Assembly: GCA_037147375.1 (NCBI GenBank)
Contig: JBAWVI010000049.1
Location: forward strand, 1-7,126
DNA from: an archaeon
GTDB lineage: Archaea; Iainarchaeota; Iainarchaeia; Iainarchaeales; CSSED10-239
Length of the DNA stretch: 7,126 nucleotides
Direction of reading: 5' to 3'
Position numbers and translations under genes: made by a program. The notes below the pieces were generated by a model. That model ran no database searches. It was not told the origin of the DNA and saw nothing but the letters and a program-made list of their open reading frames with translations. Positions 1 through 7,126 of the stretch are shown one piece after another. How positions within the stretch are numbered: the stretch's first letter is position 1; every line of letters begins with the position of its first letter.

Positions 1-11
1 TATACATATAG

Positions 12-20
12 TATATAACT
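12..20 (+). promoter_or_regulatory. Candidate archaeal TATA-box-like element upstream of the large ORF
   Basis: tatataact lies at 12-20, roughly 35-40 nt upstream of the ATG at 53. It is bracketed by a 7-bp inverted repeat, ataacta (15-21) / tagttat (30-36). Such matches are frequent in this AT-rich background, so support is weak. Confidence 0.25.
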
Positions 21-31
21 ATAAGTTTGTA

Positions 32-59
32 GTTATTTATGAAAAGTTATTTATGAAAA
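32..59 (+). repeat. Perfect 14-nt tandem duplication (gttatttatgaaaa x2) spanning the start codon of the large ORF
   Basis: Positions 32-45 and 46-59 are identical by direct reading. Each copy contains an ATG (39-41 and 53-55). Confidence 0.9.
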
Positions 60-3000
60 AAGATAAGACATCAACTAATACAAGAGATGAAAAGAACAGT
101 GATACAGGTATCACTTTAAAGAAGATTGATTCAACTATAAGTGTATCTGATAATAATGATATTTCTGAAAAAGTAGATATTTCTCAAGAAATCACTTCAA
201 AGGTATCTTCTTCTATTGAGGTTACTGATGATGAAAGTAAGGAAAATATTTCAAAATATATACCCTTAAAAACAAGAACAATTAAGAAAAAAATAGTTGT
301 TTATGATTATGGCAAGCATAATCAAGATAATAAAAAAATAGAGCTCAATGATGTTAAGCTTCCTAAAATTAAACTTGTAAATGATGATGAAGAAAATTCG
401 AAGTCACTAAATCCAGATGGGTCTATTAAAAAGAAAGAAGATCCAACAGTTCAAATTAAAAGAATGGTTGTTGATGTTGAAGATAAGCCACATGTTCTTC
501 CTCCTAAAAATATTTCAAGTGAACCACCAAAGATCGAAGATGTAAAACCAATTATTTCTGTTACAGATATTTCAAAAGAAATATTTGATAATTTAGATAA
601 TCAGGTTCCTGTATCAGCTCCTTTTGTTGATACACCAGATTTACAACCAGCAGAACCAAAGATTGAAGATAATAAACCAATCATTCCAGTTACTGAAATT
701 TCAAAAGAAATATTTGATAATTTAGATAATCAGGTTCCTGTATCAGTTCCTTCTTTTGATACAAATGATTTAGATAAAACTGAAACAAAATTATTACAAG
801 AAGAACCTGAATTAATACCTACACAAGAACCAATGATTGTTCCTCAAGAATTTCCAGAAGTTGTTCCTCAAGAACTTCCTATGATTATTCCTCAGGAATT
901 GCCTGAAGTTATTCCTCAAGAATTACCAGCAATCATTCCTCAAGAACTTCTAACTGAGGTTTATGATTTTAAACCAGATGGAATACATGAACTTCCAGTA
1001 TCTATTCCACTTGATAAACTTCCTGAAACTTTAGAAAAACAATTCTTAGAAAAACAACAAAAAGAATTACAAGAAAGAATACAAAAAGAAATTGAAGATA
1101 CTTTAAAAGAAAGATATAATAAACTTGATTTAAAAAATGTAACTGTTGTTATTGAAGATAAAATAGTAAATGATAAAATAAATGAAACAATTCCTAAAAA
1201 ACCAGAAATTAAAATAATTATTGTTGAAGATATTAATAAATTATTATTAGAGCTTGATGAAAGAACAAAAACATTAATCTCTGATGACACTATGCTTGAA
1301 TTATATAGTTTTAGAGGTGAACTTCCAAAGGTAAGTAAAATATCCTATAAAACATATAATATTCAAAATTTATATTCAAAGATTGATGACCTTTCAAAAA
1401 TTGCAAAACAAAATTCAGCAAATGCTCAAATAAAGGTTAGTGATATTTCAGATACACAAATCCCACTTAGTTCAAAACAAAAATTTAAACAAGAACTTAA
1501 TGAAGATGCAATTATTGAAGAATTAATGATTCCAGAAATTATTCCAATTAAAGACAACATAACAGATATAGATAGTTTGGTTAATAATAAATTTAGCGAA
1601 TCAATTGAACTTAGAGACGAAAGTATGCAAATACCAACCTTTGTAGATTCAAAGTCTGGACCTGAATTAAATAAAAAGGTTCAGGATAATCTAAAAACAA
1701 TAAACGAAAATAAATTAAAAAAAGAACAAAGCAAACAAAATACTCAAAAACATAAATCCATTAATTCAATTGTGGATAGTAAGAAGGTTACTCCAACAAC
1801 ACAAAATCAAGAACATAAACAAAAGGAAATAGATCCAAGAATATCTCTTCTTGAAAAAGAATTAAAGGAAGAAAAAGAAAGATTTGATTCCTTTATTAGA
1901 CAAGAAAGAGATAAGCCAGTAAAAACTACAACTAATGAAATAGATCCAAAAACATATCTTCTTGAAAAAGAACTAAAGGAAGAGAAAGAAAGATTTAATA
2001 ATTATTTAAATCAAGAAATGAATAAGCCTATAGAAGCAAAAGAAATTAATCCTAGAGCACAAGTTCCAACAAATGAACCAACAGGAATAAATGCACCTAG
2101 AAAAGAGCAAAAACCAGAAAATGAAATTTATATAAATAAAGATCAAGTTCCAAAAAGTCAAGAAAAAGGAGTATCTTATATTCTTCCAAAGGATGCTAAA
2201 ATAAACTTTTCAAAAAATGCAGGGTATGTTGGACTTGAAGGCGTACAATCTACACCTCATACATTTAATTTTGAAAAAAATAAAATGCAATCTTTGGTTT
2301 ATTCAACACCAATGAATATTCTTGATTCAGATATAACAAAAGTATTTGAAAAGTATTCTCTTGATGATTTCACGTATGTTACAATTTCTTATATTAAGGG
2401 TAAAGGTTTATTCTATAACATGATTCAATTAGAATTAACTCCAGAGCAAAATAAAGTATTTTATGAAATTAAAAAAATATTTTTCAATTCAATAGATCAA
2501 AACTATTATACATTTAATGGAGATAAATACACTCTTGATCAATATACTCAAAAGATATTTGATATTTCTTTATCTAAACTATCTTATCAAGTTAATTCAC
2601 TTGATAAAAAATTATTTTATAAGTTCATACAAAGAGAATTTTCTGGACTTGGAATATTAACTGCACTATTATCTGATAAAAAGGTTCTTGAAGTTTCTTG
2701 TGCAGGAGAAAAAACAAGTGTTGTAGTGTACCATATGGAATACGGTACTCTTGAAACAAATATAAATTTTGATAATATAAATAAATTAAATCAATTTGTT
2801 CTTCTTTTAACTAAAAACATGGGGCTTTATGTAAACTCATCACACCCAATAATTGAAGGTTACCTTCCAAATGGATATAAGGTTGAGGGTTTATTTTCTG
2901 CAGGAGAACTAAGTAGCAAAGGTTCTTCATTTGTTATTAAGAAGTACTTAGATGCACCAATAACTCCAACCTCATTAATTAAAGCTGGAGTTGGAACTAT

Positions 3001-3682
3001 TGATGTGTTTGCTTATATTTGGAGTGCAATAAATGAAGATTATAAAATCATACTAACTGGTGATGATACTTCGTTTATATTCCTAAACTCAGTTGGTCTC
3101 TTATATCCTGATAAGAAAATAATTTCTGTTCAATCATATGATAGAATTAAGTTGCCACAAAAGCAATGGATAAAAAGAGTTGTTACTGGAAATGAAGAAG
3201 TGGATAAAAAAACAATAATACAACACACAGTGTCTGAAAGACCAGATTATATCTTTGTTGATGAATTTGGAAGTGATGTGTTTGATGTTCCATGGTATGC
3301 AATAAATTTATTTTATGTAACTTACAACCAAGTTCCACAATTAAGAGAAAACATAAGAACTATGGGTCAAAAAGCAATAATTATTGAATTACAAAAGCTT
3401 AAGATTGGATATAGTGAAAACACACAGATAATAAAAATTGAAGAAATTGTAGATAGAAACGATTTTATAACAATTGAGCTTTCAACTAAGGATAAAGCAT
3501 ACCATATGAATTTATTATCATCAACAATTGATATTGTTAATTTCAATAAGAGAAGGAAATACATGAGATGGTTAAGTGACACTAATATGGTTGACTATCG
3601 TGATTTTAATAATATAGTTAATGAGTTTTATGTTAACGAAGAAAAAGTTATAAAAAGATTAGGAATAGATATAACTGCATAA
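53..3682 (+). CDS. Giant FlaI/PilB/GspE-family (type II/IV secretion NTPase) homolog with degenerate nucleotide-binding motifs and a ~730-aa repeat-rich N-terminal extension; predicted pseudo-ATPase
   Basis: Uninterrupted 1209-codon ORF. From about aa 740 the sequence follows the FlaI-type layout: YSLDDFTYVTISYIKGKG...ELTPEQ (FlaI N-terminal domain pattern), FSGLGILTALLSDKKVLEVSCAG...VVVYH, IIEGYLPNGYKVEGLF, SSKGSSFVIKKY...ITPTSLI, FAYIWSAINEDYKIILTG. The expected GxxGxGK[ST] position reads GDDTSFIF. Confidence 0.85.
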   Translation: MKKDKTSTNTRDEKNSDTGITLKKIDSTISVSDNNDISEKVDISQEITSKVSSSIEVTDDESKENISKYIPLKTRTIKKKIVVYDYGKHNQDNKKIELNDVKLPKIKLVNDDEENSKSLNPDGSIKKKEDPTVQIKRMVVDVEDKPHVLPPKNISSEPPKIEDVKPIISVTDISKEIFDNLDNQVPVSAPFVDTPDLQPAEPKIEDNKPIIPVTEISKEIFDNLDNQVPVSVPSFDTNDLDKTETKLLQEEPELIPTQEPMIVPQEFPEVVPQELPMIIPQELPEVIPQELPAIIPQELLTEVYDFKPDGIHELPVSIPLDKLPETLEKQFLEKQQKELQERIQKEIEDTLKERYNKLDLKNVTVVIEDKIVNDKINETIPKKPEIKIIIVEDINKLLLELDERTKTLISDDTMLELYSFRGELPKVSKISYKTYNIQNLYSKIDDLSKIAKQNSANAQIKVSDISDTQIPLSSKQKFKQELNEDAIIEELMIPEIIPIKDNITDIDSLVNNKFSESIELRDESMQIPTFVDSKSGPELNKKVQDNLKTINENKLKKEQSKQNTQKHKSINSIVDSKKVTPTTQNQEHKQKEIDPRISLLEKELKEEKERFDSFIRQERDKPVKTTTNEIDPKTYLLEKELKEEKERFNNYLNQEMNKPIEAKEINPRAQVPTNEPTGINAPRKEQKPENEIYINKDQVPKSQEKGVSYILPKDAKINFSKNAGYVGLEGVQSTPHTFNFEKNKMQSLVYSTPMNILDSDITKVFEKYSLDDFTYVTISYIKGKGLFYNMIQLELTPEQNKVFYEIKKIFFNSIDQNYYTFNGDKYTLDQYTQKIFDISLSKLSYQVNSLDKKLFYKFIQREFSGLGILTALLSDKKVLEVSCAGEKTSVVVYHMEYGTLETNINFDNINKLNQFVLLLTKNMGLYVNSSHPIIEGYLPNGYKVEGLFSAGELSSKGSSFVIKKYLDAPITPTSLIKAGVGTIDVFAYIWSAINEDYKIILTGDDTSFIFLNSVGLLYPDKKIISVQSYDRIKLPQKQWIKRVVTGNEEVDKKTIIQHTVSERPDYIFVDEFGSDVFDVPWYAINLFYVTYNQVPQLRENIRTMGQKAIIIELQKLKIGYSENTQIIKIEEIVDRNDFITIELSTKDKAYHMNLLSSTIDIVNFNKRRKYMRWLSDTNMVDYRDFNNIVNEFYVNEEKVIKRLGIDITA
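521..781 (+). repeat. In-frame tandem duplication (~129-132 nt, two copies) encoding EP(P)KIED-KPII-VT-ISKEIFDNLDNQVPVS...
   Basis: Copy 1 starts at 521 and copy 2 at 653. A 49-nt core (atttcaaaagaaatatttgataatttagataatcaggttcctgtatcag) is perfectly identical at 569-617 and 698-746. Confidence 0.9.
800..961 (+). repeat. In-frame 24-nt (8-aa) tandem repeat, about 6-7 units, encoding PQE(L/F)P-x-(I/V)(I/V)
   Basis: Translation: EEPELIPTQEPMIVPQEFPEVVPQELPMIIPQELPEVIPQELPAIIPQELLTEV. The DNA unit attcctcaagaa... recurs with a 24-nt period. Confidence 0.9.
1826..2056 (+). repeat. In-frame ~111-nt (37-aa) tandem repeat, two full copies plus a partial third
   Basis: EIDPRISLLEKELKEEKERFDSFIRQERDKPVKTTTN starts at 1826 and EIDPKTYLLEKELKEEKERFNNYLNQEMNKPIEAK at 1937. 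A third initiation, EINPR, starts at 2042. Confidence 0.85.
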
Positions 3683-3706
3683 ATTAAATTATAAAGAGTA
3701 AAAAAT

Positions 3707-4552
3707 ATGTTTGGAAAAATATTTACGAAACTATCCACCTATTTTCTAGGGGAATTAGTTTCAAGATTTGAAAATAGATTTAAGAATTTCTCAAAGGTAT
3801 TAACTTATGCAAACATAAATGAAGACCCTACAACATATATATCAAATTCCTTATTTGCTTCTTTTCTTCTTTTCCTATTCTTAGAATTTGGAACTATTTT
3901 AATGATGATTAGACTAAATATTATGTTTGGTTTATTTTCATTTTTAATAACTATTTTATTATCTTTTACGTTTGCAGGATTGGTTTTCATACTCTTTTGT
4001 AAGTACCCTTACTACGTACTAGAATCGAAGAAGAAAGAAATTGATTATGAAATTGAAAACTCAATAAGGCACTTATCTGTTTTAGAAGATAAATCTTTAA
4101 CCATAAAGGATATATTAAATATTCTATTAAAACTTGAAAACAATAAACTATTATCTGAAGAAGCACAAAAGATATTAACTCTTTCAAGCATAAATTCAAA
4201 TATTAAAGATACTCTTCGTCAAGTTATTAAAGAAACATATTCTGAACTTGAAAAAAACTTCTTTAGAAGATTAATTGATGTTATTGATAATAAGGATCAA
4301 ATCGGTAAAGTAGTTAATGAATTTTTAGAAAGTCTTGAGCAATTAAGAAAAGAAACTAGTGAACAAAAGAAATCAAGCATAAATCTATTATTTGAAGTAA
4401 ATATATTTTTATTCTTTTTTGTAATTATTTTATTAACTAGTTTGTTTTTAGTTTCTCTTGATCAACAAACAATTAGAAGCTTATTAATGTTTATTGCAAT
4501 TGTGTTTCCTATAGTTGAATTTGTTTTAGTAGTTATATTATTTAAAGGTTAA
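3707..4552 (+). CDS. Polytopic membrane protein with one type II secretion system F (FlaJ/TadB/PilC-like) platform domain
   Basis: 281-aa ORF starting 24 nt after the ATPase-like gene. Layout: N-terminal cytoplasmic segment, a hydrophobic block (about aa 48-97), a ~125-aa charged helical region (EIDYEIENSIRHLSVLEDKSLTIKDILNILLKL...) and C-terminal TM helices. This TM / helical bundle / TM pattern and the position next to the ATPase are typical of T2SSF platform proteins. Confidence 0.7.
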   Translation: MFGKIFTKLSTYFLGELVSRFENRFKNFSKVLTYANINEDPTTYISNSLFASFLLFLFLEFGTILMMIRLNIMFGLFSFLITILLSFTFAGLVFILFCKYPYYVLESKKKEIDYEIENSIRHLSVLEDKSLTIKDILNILLKLENNKLLSEEAQKILTLSSINSNIKDTLRQVIKETYSELEKNFFRRLIDVIDNKDQIGKVVNEFLESLEQLRKETSEQKKSSINLLFEVNIFLFFFVIILLTSLFLVSLDQQTIRSLLMFIAIVFPIVEFVLVVILFKG

Positions 4553-4573
4553 TTTAGATAAAATGGATAATTT

Positions 4574-5722
4574 ATGACAGAGATGAAATTTAAGCCAAGT
4601 AAACTAGAAGATGAGTTTACGTTATTTTTCTATAGTCATGAATATGATGTGTTAGAAATTGCTGGTATTCTCTCTGGGTTATTAATTATATTTATTACAA
4701 ACAGATTCTTTTTTCTAAGCTCTATTTATTATTTATTATTAATATTTGGAATTGTTGTTTGTTCACTTGGGTTCTTGCTTGAATATGTAATTAAATTTGC
4801 TAAAAAGAAAGCAATTGAACTTGAATTTGGATACTTTCTTCAAGATCTTTCAAGAGAGTATAAAAACACAAAAAATTTATCTATTGCAATAACTAATATT
4901 TCTAATAATAATACCTATGGTTCTGTGGACTCAGAGATTAGACGTATAGCAACTAGACTATCTTGGGGTGATGATTTCTATAATGCTTTATTATCAGTAA
5001 ATAAGGAAATAAGAAGTCCAATAATTCATCATACTCTTGTATTACTTGATACATTTAAAACAAGTGAGGTTCCTTTAAATAGAATTCTATTAAACATTTC
5101 AAAAGATATTTCTATTTATAGAGAAGAAAACTTAAAAAAGAAATATTTTAAGAATCTTTATTACTTAGCAATTGTTTTCTTTTCAATCTTCTTATTTGTA
5201 TTAGTTTATTTTGATTTACTTATTGGTAGAAATTTCTTATGGTATTCTACTACTGATGTAGTAACTAGAATATTCATTGATAATTTCTTATTGTATATTG
5301 GTTTGTTATTATCTTTCTTTACTGCATTTGTAATGCATTCTATTAAAGGAGGTAAGAGTATAGACTTCTTAAAATATATTGGTGTGTTCTTTATAATCGT
5401 AATTGTTTTATTTCAAGTGTTTATTCCAAAACCAACTGCAGATGATGTTCTTATTGAAAGTATAAATCATATGAAAGAGAGTGGAGAAACAAATATAGTT
5501 TTAGAAAGGATAATTTCTCTTGAATCAATTAGTTCAAAGTATATTAGTGAGAATGTTAGAACTGATCAAATTTATTTCATTAATGGAAAGACAAGAAGTA
5601 CTTGTGATATTAAGTGTATAGAATACACTATCTTAGTTGATGATGCTACATTCTATAATTTTAATATAATTAGAGATGGAGATAAATTTATTATTTATTA
5701 TTATGTAGTTATTGAATTGTAA
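4574..5722 (+). CDS. Polytopic membrane protein with one type II secretion system F (FlaJ/TadC/PilC-like) platform domain plus a ~95-aa C-terminal non-membrane extension
   Basis: 382-aa ORF starting 21 nt after the previous gene. Two N-terminal TM helices are followed by a cytoplasmic segment (FGYFLQDLSREYKNTKNLSIAITNIS...GSVDSEIRRIATRLSWGDDFYNALLSV) that fits the T2SSF pattern (hP-x-hL-x-hL...G-x-s-h-x-x-A-h ... G-x-x-h-x-x-A-L). About three more TM helices follow, then a soluble Cys-containing tail. Confidence 0.75.
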   Translation: MTEMKFKPSKLEDEFTLFFYSHEYDVLEIAGILSGLLIIFITNRFFFLSSIYYLLLIFGIVVCSLGFLLEYVIKFAKKKAIELEFGYFLQDLSREYKNTKNLSIAITNISNNNTYGSVDSEIRRIATRLSWGDDFYNALLSVNKEIRSPIIHHTLVLLDTFKTSEVPLNRILLNISKDISIYREENLKKKYFKNLYYLAIVFFSIFLFVLVYFDLLIGRNFLWYSTTDVVTRIFIDNFLLYIGLLLSFFTAFVMHSIKGGKSIDFLKYIGVFFIIVIVLFQVFIPKPTADDVLIESINHMKESGETNIVLERIISLESISSKYISENVRTDQIYFINGKTRSTCDIKCIEYTILVDDATFYNFNIIRDGDKFIIYYYVVIEL

Positions 5723-5733
5723 TTTAATCATAC

Positions 5734-5747
5734 TATATATAATATAA
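5734..5747 (+). promoter_or_regulatory. Candidate TATA-like element in the 79-nt gap upstream of the DUF192-like gene
   Basis: tatatataatataa lies ~55-68 nt upstream of the TTG start. This is the largest intergenic gap so far in the cluster. Specificity is low in AT-rich DNA. Confidence 0.25.
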
Positions 5748-5788
5748 TGAATAATATGTTTTCTCACAAACAAAGTTAATGAAAAGTA

Positions 5789-5794
5789 AGGTGA
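5789..5794 (+). promoter_or_regulatory. Shine-Dalgarno-like ribosome binding site (aGGTGa) for the TTG-initiated DUF192-like gene
   Basis: GGTG at 5790-5793 sits 8 nt upstream of TTG 5802. The first in-frame ATG is the Met of the conserved GLM motif, about 28 codons downstream of the TTG. Starting there would delete the conserved N-terminal strand and the G and L of that motif. Confidence 0.55.
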
Positions 5795-5801
5795 ATTTAA
5801 T

Positions 5802-6152
5802 TTGTTATATAATGTTTCAAAGAAGAAAACAATTCTTAATAAAGTTAAGATTGCAGACACTGAATTTAAGCAAGCTCTTGGACTTATGTTTTCAAGAAGA
5901 AGTAAGTTTAATTATTGTTTAATATTTTCAAGACCAACTTCATCAATTATAGGTTCATCTATACATATGATGTTTGTGTTTTATCCAATCACAGTTATCT
6001 TTCTTGATGAAAATAAGAAAGTAGTTGATATTAAAAAGAAAGTAATTCCATTTTGGTTTTATGCTCCTAAGAAACCAGCAAAGTATATACTTGAAATGCC
6101 TACAAGTACAAACATAAATTCCGTAAATGTAAATGATAGATTTAAATGGTAA
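5802..6152 (+). CDS. DUF192 (COG1430-like) family small protein
   Basis: 116 aa. The pattern matches the DUF192 layout as I recall it: V-x-h-A-x-T-x-x-x-x-x-x-GLM near the N-terminus (VKIADTEFKQALGLMF), a central hMhxxxxPhxhhFhDxxxxVV block (HMMFVFYPITVIFLDENKKVVDI) and a C-terminal A-x-YhLEh block (AKYILEMP). Confidence 0.65.
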   Translation: MLYNVSKKKTILNKVKIADTEFKQALGLMFSRRSKFNYCLIFSRPTSSIIGSSIHMMFVFYPITVIFLDENKKVVDIKKKVIPFWFYAPKKPAKYILEMPTSTNINSVNVNDRFKW

Positions 6153-6161
6153 TTAGTCTAG

Positions 6162-6170
6162 TATATATTT
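6162..6170 (+). promoter_or_regulatory. Candidate TATA-like element upstream of the pilin-like gene
   Basis: tatatattt lies ~45-53 nt upstream of ATG 6215, within a 62-nt intergenic gap. Specificity is low. Confidence 0.25.
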
Positions 6171-6214
6171 GTATTTTTGTATTAAGAGATACAATTATAA
6201 AAGAGAAGTAATTA

Positions 6215-7126
6215 ATGACGCAAAATGAAATTAAAACTTTAGAAGATATAGATAAGAAATCTATTTCTTCAATTATAGTTGTAATCTTAATTGTATTAAT
6301 TGCAGTTATTTTAATAGGTATGATTCTTACTTGGTCTAAAGATACTGTAAAAACTAAATTAGATGATGCTACAGAGAATATGAAAGTGTTATCTGAACTA
6401 GAATGTAGTAATGCTAAGTATGAAGTTGAGTTTTGTAATATTAACACAGTAACTAAGAATATAGATTTTTTAATAACAAATAATTCAGGGGTTGACTTTT
6501 CTTATTTTACTTTATCTGTGTTTGGTAAGAATATTTCTGGAGATTCTATGGTAGTTACAGGTTTATTTAATACAAATATTAGTAGTGGTTCTTCTAAGTT
6601 ATTGTCTACAAATTCAGATTACTATAGTGTTGTTAAACAAGATTCAAATTTATCTTTATTAGATTTAGATCAAGAATATACTTTCAATTTAGTAAGTGCA
6701 ACTTGTCCAAATTCAGTTGTTGATTTATCTTGTACTTCTGCAGCAGAATATACTTCATCACCAATTTTTTCAATACCTGATGGTAATTATTATTTATCTC
6801 AAAACGTAATTATATCCACAGATTCTGATGCAGTTATTTATTATACACTTGATGGAACTAATCCAACTACAAGTAGTTTAGTTTATTCAAGTGCAATTAA
6901 CCTTCTTGAAGATACAACTACAACAATTAAAGCAATTGCAGTTAAGCCAGGATATTTAGAAAGTACAGTATCCACAGGAACATATATTATTACACATACA
7001 CTAACAACTCTAGGTGCATCTCCAGCTGCAGGTTCTTATTATTCTATTCAAAATGTGACTTTATCAGGAGAAGCTGGTTCAACCATTTATTACACAATAG
7101 ATGGATCAACACCAACTACAGGAAGT
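6215..7126 (+). CDS. Archaeal type IV pilin-like protein (class III signal peptide / Pilin_N-like N-terminus) fused to repeated Fn3_assoc / CHB_HEX_C-like surface domains; 3' end truncated by the window
   Basis: This ORF is absent from the supplied track because it has no stop codon in the window. An in-frame TAA at 6209-6211 precedes ATG 6215, and 304 codons then stay open to the last base. The N-terminus is MTQNEIKTLEDIDKKS-ISSIIVVILIVLIAVILIGMILTW: a charged leader ending KK-S, then a ~20-residue hydrophobic helix resembling the archaeal pilin N-terminal consensus ([21 protein letters not shown]). Downstream, YYTLDGTNPTTSS...IKAIAVKPGY..S and again YYTIDGSTPTTGS match the signature I recall for Fn3_assoc/CHB_HEX_C domains. 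Confidence 0.7.
   Translation, partial: MTQNEIKTLEDIDKKSISSIIVVILIVLIAVILIGMILTWSKDTVKTKLDDATENMKVLSELECSNAKYEVEFCNINTVTKNIDFLITNNSGVDFSYFTLSVFGKNISGDSMVVTGLFNTNISSGSSKLLSTNSDYYSVVKQDSNLSLLDLDQEYTFNLVSATCPNSVVDLSCTSAAEYTSSPIFSIPDGNYYLSQNVIISTDSDAVIYYTLDGTNPTTSSLVYSSAINLLEDTTTTIKAIAVKPGYLESTVSTGTYIITHTLTTLGASPAAGSYYSIQNVTLSGEAGSTIYYTIDGSTPTTGS
6741..7126 (+). other. At least two tandem Fn3_assoc / chitobiase-C-like domains within the pilin-like ORF
   Basis: Domain 1 spans about 6741-6990 (SSPIFSIPDGNYYLSQNVIISTDSDAVIYYTLDGTNPTTSSLVYSSAINLLEDTTTTIKAIAVKPGYLESTVSTGTYII). Domain 2 starts about 6991 (ASPAAGSYYSIQNVTLSGEAGSTIYYTIDGSTPTTGS...) and runs off the window. Confidence 0.6.

Follow-up and report, generated by a model that had tools for sequence, protein, structure and literature searches.

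The DNA analysed here, referred to as the window, is an entire contig of 7126 bp from a metagenome-assembled genome deposited at NCBI and belonging to the Iainarchaeota within the DPANN archaea. It starts 52 nucleotides (nt) 5' of the first of five genes (g1 to g5), which all lie on the plus strand and are separated by intergenic gaps of 24, 21, 79 and 62 nt. An earlier reading of the sequence, in the following called the first-pass annotation, had given exactly these co-directional genes and gap sizes and had interpreted them as a type IV filament-like locus with four atypical parts: a dead and enlarged ATPase, a split platform, a DUF192 protein and a pilin-adhesin fusion. Each of these parts was upheld on testing. 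The window holds most of a lineage-specific operon of the Iainarchaeota that resembles a type IV pilus (T4P) system. In its full form, as found in relatives, this operon encodes i) a FlaK-type prepilin peptidase, ii) a pseudo-ATPase, iii) the two platform proteins TadC1 and TadC2, iv) a DUF192 protein and v) one or more pilins or pilin-adhesin fusions. The genes in the window are:

53-3682, plus strand: g1, 1209 amino acids (aa), cytoplasmic pseudo-ATPase of the PilB/FlaI/GspE family
3707-4552, plus strand: g2 (TadC1), 281 aa, platform protein
4574-5722, plus strand: g3 (TadC2), 382 aa, platform protein
5802-6152, plus strand: g4, 116 aa, TTG start, DUF192 protein
6215-7126, plus strand, continuing past the contig end: g5, at least 304 aa, truncated pilin-adhesin fusion

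The four complete genes (g1 to g4) all end with the stop codon TAA.

The affiliation of g1 with the secretion ATPases is evident from its C-terminal part, as residues 759-1072 match the NCBIfam model FlaI (1.4e-33, 116 bits, with an equivalog cut-off of 550 bits) and residues 1164-1206 match Pfam PilB3_C (5.5e-6, 26.9 bits against a cut-off of 27). The closest solved structures are GspE of Archaeoglobus (2oap, 2e-40) and then FlaI (4ii7, 4e-26), while CpaF gives a match of 7e-4 only. Pfam T2SSE (PF00437) does not match g1 even at E<=1, and no transmembrane (TM) segments are predicted. Together with the loss of motifs described below, the missing T2SSE match therefore marks g1, to judge from its sequence, as a homologue of the PilB/FlaI/GspE secretion ATPases rather than a functional member. 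Its features are:

53-2326 (residues 1-758), plus strand: N-terminal extension, K/E/N-rich, of low complexity and with internal repeats
1229-1396 (residues 393-448), plus strand: island 1 of the extension, DINxLLxELxxxTK ... LExYSFxxxxPKVxKIxYKxYxIxNLYSKIDDL, present in all 16 full-length members
1517-1561 (residues 489-503), plus strand: island 2 of the extension, EELMIPEIIPIKDNI, conserved
2327-3682 (residues 759-1209), plus strand: ATPase-like domain, made up of an N-terminal domain, a RecA-like C-terminal domain and a PilB3_C tail
3050-3091, plus strand: degenerate Walker A, ILTGDDTSFIFLNS, with GK(T/S) deleted
3239-3328, plus strand: Walker B remnant and missing His-box position, RPDYIFVDEFGSD and WYAINLFYVTYN

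For the comparison of catalytic motifs, g1 of the window and 19 relatives were aligned against an active archaeal ATPase. A deletion of two to three residues takes out the GK[T/S] of Walker A in every one of the 20 proteins; in the alignment with 2oap, for instance, the Walker A sequence 'GETASGKTTTLN' is placed opposite 'GDDTS--FIFLN' of g1, and a regex scan for GxxGxGK[T/S] retrieved no instance in any member. The glutamates of the Asp box are likewise replaced throughout (20/20, EE to QS, QA or similar), the position of the catalytic glutamate in Walker B is unconstrained across the family (E/N/Q/D/T/V/Y), and the His box is absent from the alignment in all 20 members. The arginines found in 'DGSR' and 'IRKF' of active relatives are lysines in the g1 family (PNGYK, VIKKY). 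With every one of these motifs degraded, the ATPase homologue is predicted to be catalytically dead in all 20 family members, and the statement that it is both inactive and enlarged (1209 aa including the long extension) is borne out.

An exhaustive family search covering 1.84 billion representative proteins sets this dead family clearly apart. It comprises about 18 clusters at 50% identity with E below 1e-117, followed by a sharp gap down to about 1e-41, where active ATPases (GGTxxGKT) with 26-31% identity begin; within the family, identities range from 45 to 85% across about 20 genomes. An intermediate protein, P0149, has 30% identity and is likewise dead, and the distant dead lineage to which it belongs (P0149, L027) keeps the order peptidase, dead ATPase, T2SSF, T2SSF. 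A check for further proteins lacking Walker A covered the 150 best representatives; the other matches, two with inteins in the P-loop and one unrelated GxxGxGRT variant, were rejected. These are the archaeal relatives P0191, P0202 and P0269, which belong to the active group. Two of them carry inteins placed exactly in the Walker A P-loop (GGTATGKC...), and one shows GxxGxGRT / VGDTRD, which may reflect an independent inactivation.

The dead domain is under strong purifying selection. The ratio of nonsynonymous to synonymous substitution rates (dN/dS) was computed between the window and its closest relative, locus L003, at a dS of about 1. The dead ATPase domain of g1 has the lowest value in the operon (0.074), followed by g4 (0.086), g2 (0.094) and g3 (0.101), while the N-terminal extension of g1 (0.29) and g5 (0.33) are less constrained. 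The inactivation is not a sign of decay, and since the same motif losses occur in all members, it is ancient and has been maintained.

The extension of g1 varies among relatives from about 340 to 750 aa and has no match in Pfam. In the window it contains repeats of 129 nt (1.8 copies, 526-763), 24 nt (4.6 copies, 840-950) and 111 nt (1.8 copies, 1826-2028). Within this variable region, the 16 full-length family members all share four or five short conserved islands. An AlphaFold model of residues 385-550 has a predicted local distance difference test (pLDDT) value of 52 and no reliable fold, and we infer that the islands may be linear docking motifs within a disordered arm.

The two genes following g1 encode the platform, for which these features were found:

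4064-4435, plus strand: T2SSF domain of g2, the single such domain of a protein with four predicted TM helices
4835-5206, plus strand: T2SSF domain of g3, the single such domain of a protein with five predicted TM helices
5426-5719 (residues 285-382, 98 aa), plus strand: C-terminal domain of g3 with two nearly invariant cysteines, C344 and C348

The match of g2 to Pfam T2SSF (PF00482) is above threshold (9.4e-10, 39 bits against a gathering score of 25.2), and the protein spans positions 5-240 of the 555-position ArlJ/FlaJ model, i.e. its first half. The window copy of g3 stays below the same cut-off (2.8e-4, 21.3 bits), and the g3 family as a whole is matched by T2SSF in 15 of 15 members (best 2e-8), with a clean match in the distant orthologue in L027. 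The membrane proteins are related to T2SSF, as had been proposed, and the platform is split: instead of the archaeal single-chain form of about 550 aa with two T2SSF domains, g2 and g3 carry one domain each, an arrangement that is Tad-like. Because of the five TM helices of g3, and with the T2SSF domain taken as cytoplasmic, its C-terminal domain is predicted to face the outside of the cell. No family or PDB entry matches this domain, and platform structures of PilC, GspF or Tad were absent from the PDB matches of the g2 and g3 profiles.

Related loci were collected by a scan of 185,579 species genomes, which yielded 18 loci, and by exact-protein look-ups, which added two further ones. All 18 lie in DPANN archaea annotated as Iainarchaeum, Diapherotrites or simply 'archaeon' and include the complete genome of Ca. 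Forterrea multitransposorum. Of 16 loci long enough to show it, 15 have the order ATPase-like gene, TadC1, TadC2, DUF192, with L018 as the exception; in eight of these loci, and also in L025, pilin-like genes come next. The gene order seen in the window is conserved across more than 17 related genomes, so that neither a lack of conserved order nor membrane proteins unrelated to T2SSF, which the first-pass annotation had named as refuting observations, was seen.

Upstream of the ATPase-like gene, a FlaK-type prepilin peptidase directly adjoins in all loci that extend so far (19/19); it matches Pfam Arc_PepC_II and Peptidase_A24 above their cut-offs and the FlaK model at 4e-12. Among the open reading frames (ORFs) of the window, neither the ORF list nor a profile search revealed a peptidase or an active ATPase, as previously noted, and the set of a complete T4P, in which both are encoded together with platform and pilins, is not found within it. 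Since the peptidase lies upstream in 19 of 19 relatives and positions 1-52 of the window align to the corresponding intergenic region of L003, the missing peptidase is a contig-edge effect.

This intergenic region is listed as follows:

1-52, plus strand: intergenic region upstream of g1 with an A/T-rich, TATA-like stretch (TATACATATAGTATATAACTATA)

Nearly every base of it aligns with its counterpart in L003, between the genes for the peptidase and the ATPase-like protein, despite synonymous sites near saturation. A tandem duplication of 14 nt at 31-59 gives rise to a 5-codon upstream ORF (uORF) at 39-56 (MKSYL and stop), whose TGA overlaps the ATG of g1. The two nucleotide differences between the window and L003 (7950-7990) within the uORF are both synonymous in the uORF frame. 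The uORF is present only in these two sequences and in none of the more distant loci. In the same intergenic region of other loci, a conserved A/T-rich element of roughly TTTATAAATATAATGNACTTAT ... TATAAATATATTT lies 80 nt upstream of the ATPase-like gene (L005-L008, L010, L012, L015, L016, L018 and L019), which is probably a dedicated promoter or regulator site of the pseudo-ATPase operon.

The small gene g4 is a clear member of DUF192 (Pfam PF02643 / COG1430, 9e-15, 55 bits against a cut-off of 27; NCBIfam PRK03760, 2.5e-28). It carries the GLMF motif region and has a weak match to the solved DUF192 structure 3m7a. Its TTG start is preceded at a distance of 7 nt by AGGTGA. As hydropathy analysis detected neither a signal peptide nor a TM helix, the protein is predicted to be cytoplasmic. 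The DUF192 gene occupies the same position in 16 related loci, and its placement between the platform and pilin-like genes is conserved across relatives. This is in line with bacterial Tad pilus operons of Bulleidia and Helcococcus, in which a DUF192 gene is consistently found at the 3' end (PMC12786226). An apparent fusion of TadC2 and DUF192 (494 aa, L002:13268-14752, identical to L015:12242-13726) was rejected, as the gene call reads through a TGA stop; under code 11 the supposed fusion consists of two same-frame genes with 6 nt between them, with the stop at L015 13367-13369 and an ATG at 13376.

The last gene, g5, is the putative substrate of the system:

6215-6769 (residues 1-185), plus strand: pilin module of g5, a long N-terminal helix followed by a beta-sandwich, with conserved C64 and C164
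6254-6334, plus strand: class III-type signal peptide and pilin helix of g5, KKS followed by ISSIIVVILIVLIAVILIGMILTW
6776-7126 (residues 188-254 and about 268-304+), plus strand: two Ig-like domains of g5 of the CHB_HEX_C_1/Fn3_assoc type (Pfam 7e-28 and 3.6e-22)

The sequence is identical to database protein P0274, whose record describes a 'partial' chitobiase-C-domain protein. Its N-terminus shows the full set of class III features, i.e. a short charged leader, a [K/R]-[G/A/S] cleavage motif and a hydrophobic helix of about 20 aa. Cleavage is predicted after S16, between KKS and ISSII, just ahead of the single hydrophobic helix (residues 20-38), which is the only TM helix of the protein. 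In a profile alignment against the PDB, KKS and the following ISSIIVVILIVLIAVILIG fall in register with the cleavage site after 'RA' of the archaeal pilin PilA2. The motif K-K-[GAS]-[IV]-S-x-[IV]-I is common to 11 paralogues and orthologues, and in g5-like modules it is followed by the hydrophobic helix and by a domain of 130 aa in which cysteines are conserved. AlphaFold models the pilin module as a 44-residue N-terminal helix with a beta-sandwich (mean pLDDT 75.6, sandwich 88-93). A Foldseek search with this model placed a Pyrobaculum T4 pilin (8fk7) at rank 3 among generic Ig-like folds (E 8e-3, template modelling score 0.51); the alignment behind the model is shallow, as the profile search for the g5 family gave four proteins only.

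Genomic context points in the same direction. At least nine genomes have modules like that of g5 after the DUF192 gene, some of them with two or three copies. Stand-alone modules of 172-179 aa, the size of a classic pilin, occur in L005 (Forterrea), L006 and L025, and in the window and elsewhere the module is fused to CHB_HEX_C arrays or to LamG, Gly-rich or Lcl_C domains. Motif, size, context and model lead us to accept g5 as a candidate pilin-like substrate. The proposed pilin-adhesin fusion stands as far as the N-terminal motif, the operon context and a moderate AlphaFold model are concerned, while its matches to Pfam and PDB profiles all stay below threshold. The Ig-like domains of g5 are the start of a longer array of adhesin repeats. 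In L003, the orthologue (14014-18327) has a frame of about 1437 codons with the pilin module, at least seven CHB_HEX_C domains and Gly_rich_2, which suggests that g5 of the window continues for more than 1000 aa past the contig end. A single in-frame TAA inside a repeat (L003 15088-15090) interrupts this orthologue; a nonsense mutation, misassembly of the repeats or some other cause may lie behind it.

An active ATPase is found in a second module. In L011, the gene directly after DUF192 encodes a T2SSE ATPase of 596 aa with an N-terminal 2x[4Fe-4S] ferredoxin domain (Fer4), whose Walker A (GNTGSGKTT), Walker B and His boxes are intact and which is followed by T2SSF-like membrane proteins and a VTT/DedA protein. 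Downstream of the pseudo-ATPase operon, this module recurs on two further contigs, at about 18 kb on that of L020 and at about 11 kb on ENA NODE_1490, where a conserved series of housekeeping genes (L16, methyltransferase, NDK, PRPP synthase) comes before it. It was thus present, 0 to 18 kb downstream, in 3/3 relatives whose contigs could be read past the immediate flank of the operon. Such a module is located at L011:10080-14113, L021:10001-15352 and L024:10001-15267, and it is made up of the Fer4-ATPase, two or three membrane proteins (at least one with T2SSF above threshold) and the VTT/DedA protein. The dead family is far smaller and narrower in taxonomic range than that of the Fer4-ATPase, which is widespread in DPANN archaea (Iainarchaeota, Micrarchaeota); between the dead protein and the Fer4-ATPase, identity is about 22%. 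No pilin or peptidase genes adjoin the module in the surroundings in L011, L020 and ENA NODE_1490, and the two modules therefore look complementary. The first-pass annotation had offered, as an alternative, an accessory module driven by a motor from another locus, and it is this reading that the relatives, with three contigs, support best. The fusion to an Fe-S domain suggests redox control of the pilus motor.

Putting these parts together, we regard it as slightly more probable than improbable that the operon encodes a type IV pilus or adhesin machine in which the pseudo-ATPase serves as scaffold or adaptor and the motor is supplied in trans. Proteins of the g5 type would be inserted into the membrane by their class III N-terminus and cleaved after K-K-[G/A/S] by the FlaK-like peptidase. 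The subunits would then be lifted from the membrane at a heterodimeric TadC1/TadC2 platform to form a short filament or a surface-anchored stalk, which could display Ig-like, LamG or Gly-rich adhesin domains for attachment, and the outside-facing cysteine domain of TadC2 may contact the nascent filament. The pseudo-ATPase, presumably unable to bind or hydrolyse ATP, would dock under the platform as a ring-shaped scaffold or adaptor, with its long disordered N-terminal arm and conserved short motifs recruiting partners. The second module, with its active Fer4-ATPase, would supply the mechanical energy in trans, and DUF192 would act as a small cytoplasmic accessory factor of the TadC1/TadC2 platform. 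A more elaborate version of this mechanism is conceivable and yet doubtful: a two-module, two-ring T4P, in which a ring of pseudo-ATPase is permanently docked on TadC1/TadC2 as the obligatory adaptor for a redox-sensing (2x[4Fe-4S]) motor ATPase, the pili are adhesin-tipped, and DUF192 is a hitherto unrecognised cross-domain accessory of Tad/T4P platforms in DPANN and Firmicutes.

Several observations weigh against the preferred reading of a pilus or adhesin machine with its motor in trans. For the substrate, the g5 family remains below threshold with Arch_flagellin (PF01917, 9e-4, 20 bits against 29.5) and with Pilin_N (PF07790, 3 of 12 members matched, best 8e-3). Its top PDB profile matches are archaeal pilins and archaellins at the sub-threshold E values of 0.04-0.12 (PilA2, 8gi2, 0.04), and Foldseek gave nothing below E 1e-3 for the pilin module, with Ig-like sandwiches making up most of the matches. 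For the platform, a comparison of the g2 and g3 family profiles with hhalign detected a weak likeness only (E 0.011, probability 4%). DUF192 is linked to the platform solely through synteny, the supposed fusion being a read-through artefact, and L027 has neither a DUF192 nor a pilin gene adjacent. The scaffold or adaptor role of g1 is arrived at by elimination, from what the genes alone reveal. Peptidase and active ATPase are seen in relatives only, the window contig being 7.1 kb long, and the Fer4-ATPase module, equipped with T2SSF proteins of its own, may form an entirely separate machine.

One rival is a self-contained, motor-less display system comparable to a bindosome, in which platform and peptidase would only process and anchor large pilin-headed adhesins in the membrane or in a short stub with no ATP-driven polymerisation; the pseudo-ATPase would then be a static plug or organiser and the Fer4-ATPase module an unrelated machine. 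Most substrates adjoining the operon are indeed large fusions (358-1571 aa) and not small pilins, the second module carries T2SSF proteins of its own, and in none of the 20 loci is an active ATPase found inside the operon, save for the adjacency in L011. However, small stand-alone pilins of the same family directly follow DUF192 in several genomes, and L018 retains the dead ATPase even where platform genes are missing. To our knowledge, moreover, every characterised T4P-type system needs an active ATPase for the extraction of subunits from the membrane, including the Bas system of Sulfolobus, where BasE is active. We consider a display system of this kind unlikely.

Of similarly low probability is a regulatory brake, whereby the pseudo-ATPase competes with the active ATPase for the platform or forms mixed hexamers, locking the filament in its extended state or stopping assembly, while the disordered arm integrates signals. 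Such a function would agree with the retention of the whole ATPase fold including the PilB3_C tail in spite of lost catalysis, with a long variable arm whose conserved short motifs are typical of regulatory docking sites, and with a conserved promoter-like region that the pseudo-ATPase gene has for itself, separate from the peptidase gene. Mixed rings, however, are unlikely at about 22% identity between the dead protein and the Fer4-ATPase, and the first place in the operon together with the tight spacing to its own platform genes better suits a stoichiometric structural part. Finally, the loss of catalytic motifs, the in-frame stop in the adhesin gene of L003 and the loss of platform genes in L018 could be taken as signs of a decaying, non-functional T4P remnant in a reduced genome. 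We give this explanation hardly any credence: it is contradicted by the dN/dS values of 0.07-0.10 for the C-terminal domain of g1 and for g2, g3 and g4, by intact frames and a kept order in about 20 genomes at 45-85% identity, and by the identical motif losses in all members, which speak for an ancient and maintained inactivation. The preferred reading thus remains that of a pilus or adhesin machine with a pseudo-ATPase as scaffold or adaptor and a motor in trans.

Besides these main features, a few further observations concern the window and its relatives. The GC content is about 25% along the whole window, and the ORFs on the minus strand are short low-complexity shadows of g1 to g5. Rfam and tRNA searches of the window returned no match, and a scan for bacterial promoters and terminators, an approach unsuited to archaea, gave fewer sites than shuffled sequence did. 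The single PADLOC match in the window, between g2 and LeoBC, was weak (E 5.8e-4) and was set aside. The look-up of the exact g3 sequence retrieved no database record. In L018 (8864-12206), TadC1 and TadC2 are absent, and the dead ATPase is followed by DUF192, an ORF of 141 aa and ribosomal protein L16. As no TadC1/2 homologue lies within the 21-kb locus and dead ATPase and DUF192 are nevertheless adjacent, this arrangement implies that another platform is used. Just upstream of the peptidase, 17 loci have equivalents of a 309-aa protein (L003:6201-7130) with 57-69% identity. It is more conserved than any pilus part, has no Pfam match and only a weak match to CehA/McbA (PHP-type) metallohydrolases, and probably serves an unrelated housekeeping function. 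Between its gene and that of the peptidase, L001 and L025 have a prenyltransferase gene on the opposite strand.

In comparison with known systems, the operon is clearly a T4P relative. It resembles the PilB3/PilC3-type adhesion T4P of Haloferax volcanii and the Archaeoglobus GspE-like clade, where a FlaK/PibD-type peptidase, a PilB-family protein with PilB3_C tail, a TadC-like platform and pilins with class III signals are encoded in one operon (survey PMC4858521). This archaeal survey and its available supplementary text contain no mention of DUF192 or of an inactivated secretion ATPase (PMC4858521). In contrast to the euryarchaeal PilB3/PilC3 systems, the operon described here has a dead ATPase, a platform of two genes, a fixed DUF192 gene and pilins fused to large adhesin arrays. 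By sequence, g1 comes closest to GspE of Archaeoglobus (2oap), FlaI and active archaeal ATPases with 26-31% identity. With the bacterial Tad/Flp pilus (TadA/CpaF, TadB and TadC, TadV) it shares a platform of two separate single-T2SSF proteins and a dedicated A24 peptidase. Tad systems use Flp pilins and, in diderm (two-membrane) bacteria, a secretin, whereas the pilins here are of archaeal type. In Bulleidia and Helcococcus the likeness extends to the DUF192 gene at the operon's 3' end (PMC12786226). CpaF is an active bifunctional motor (PMC12019362), in contrast to the dead g1.

A functional analogy, but no more than that, is provided by ATPase-fold rings that have a structural or coupling role rather than that of a motor, namely PilT as adaptor for PilU and ArlH/FlaH under ArlI/FlaI. 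PilU works only through PilT (PMC6762196, PMC6821130). PilT is natively active, whereas here the PilB/FlaI-family protein itself is devoid of a P-loop. Catalytically inactive PilT reportedly still supports PilU. ArlH/FlaH, which sits under ArlI/FlaI in the archaellum, is of the KaiC/RecA type and still binds ATP. In the Bas system of Sulfolobus, large surface proteins with class III signal peptides depend on a PilB/TadC-type pair and PibD. The combination of such surface proteins with a PilB/TadC-type pair and a peptidase is found here as well; Bas differs in that BasE is active, its substrates are sugar-binding rather than Ig-like or LamG arrays, and DUF192 is not part of it. Literature searches on DUF192, on pili of DPANN archaea and Iainarchaeota and on inactivated T4P ATPases, including a review of DPANN 'dark matter', returned no prior description. 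What is new is the combination of a fixed pseudo-ATPase, a split platform with an outside-facing domain, DUF192, adhesin-fused pilins and a ferredoxin-fused motor in trans.

What this means reaches beyond the single operon. T4P machines are defined by their ATP-driven motor, and here a lineage keeps a motor homologue that has lost every nucleotide-handling motif and is nevertheless the most constrained part of the operon. Such a conserved dead motor points to an unrecognised structural or coupling role of the PilB/FlaI fold. For DUF192, a widespread domain of unknown function, the operon represents the first conserved genomic context in archaea, and it matches the observation in bacterial Tad operons. 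An episymbiotic lifestyle of the source organism, which the first-pass annotation held to be plausible, would follow only from its affiliation with the DPANN archaea and the Iainarchaeota. With peptidase, platform, pilins and giant adhesins, the operon nevertheless provides a concrete candidate for an attachment apparatus in this uncultured DPANN group, and these implications can be tested with recombinant proteins and complex prediction.

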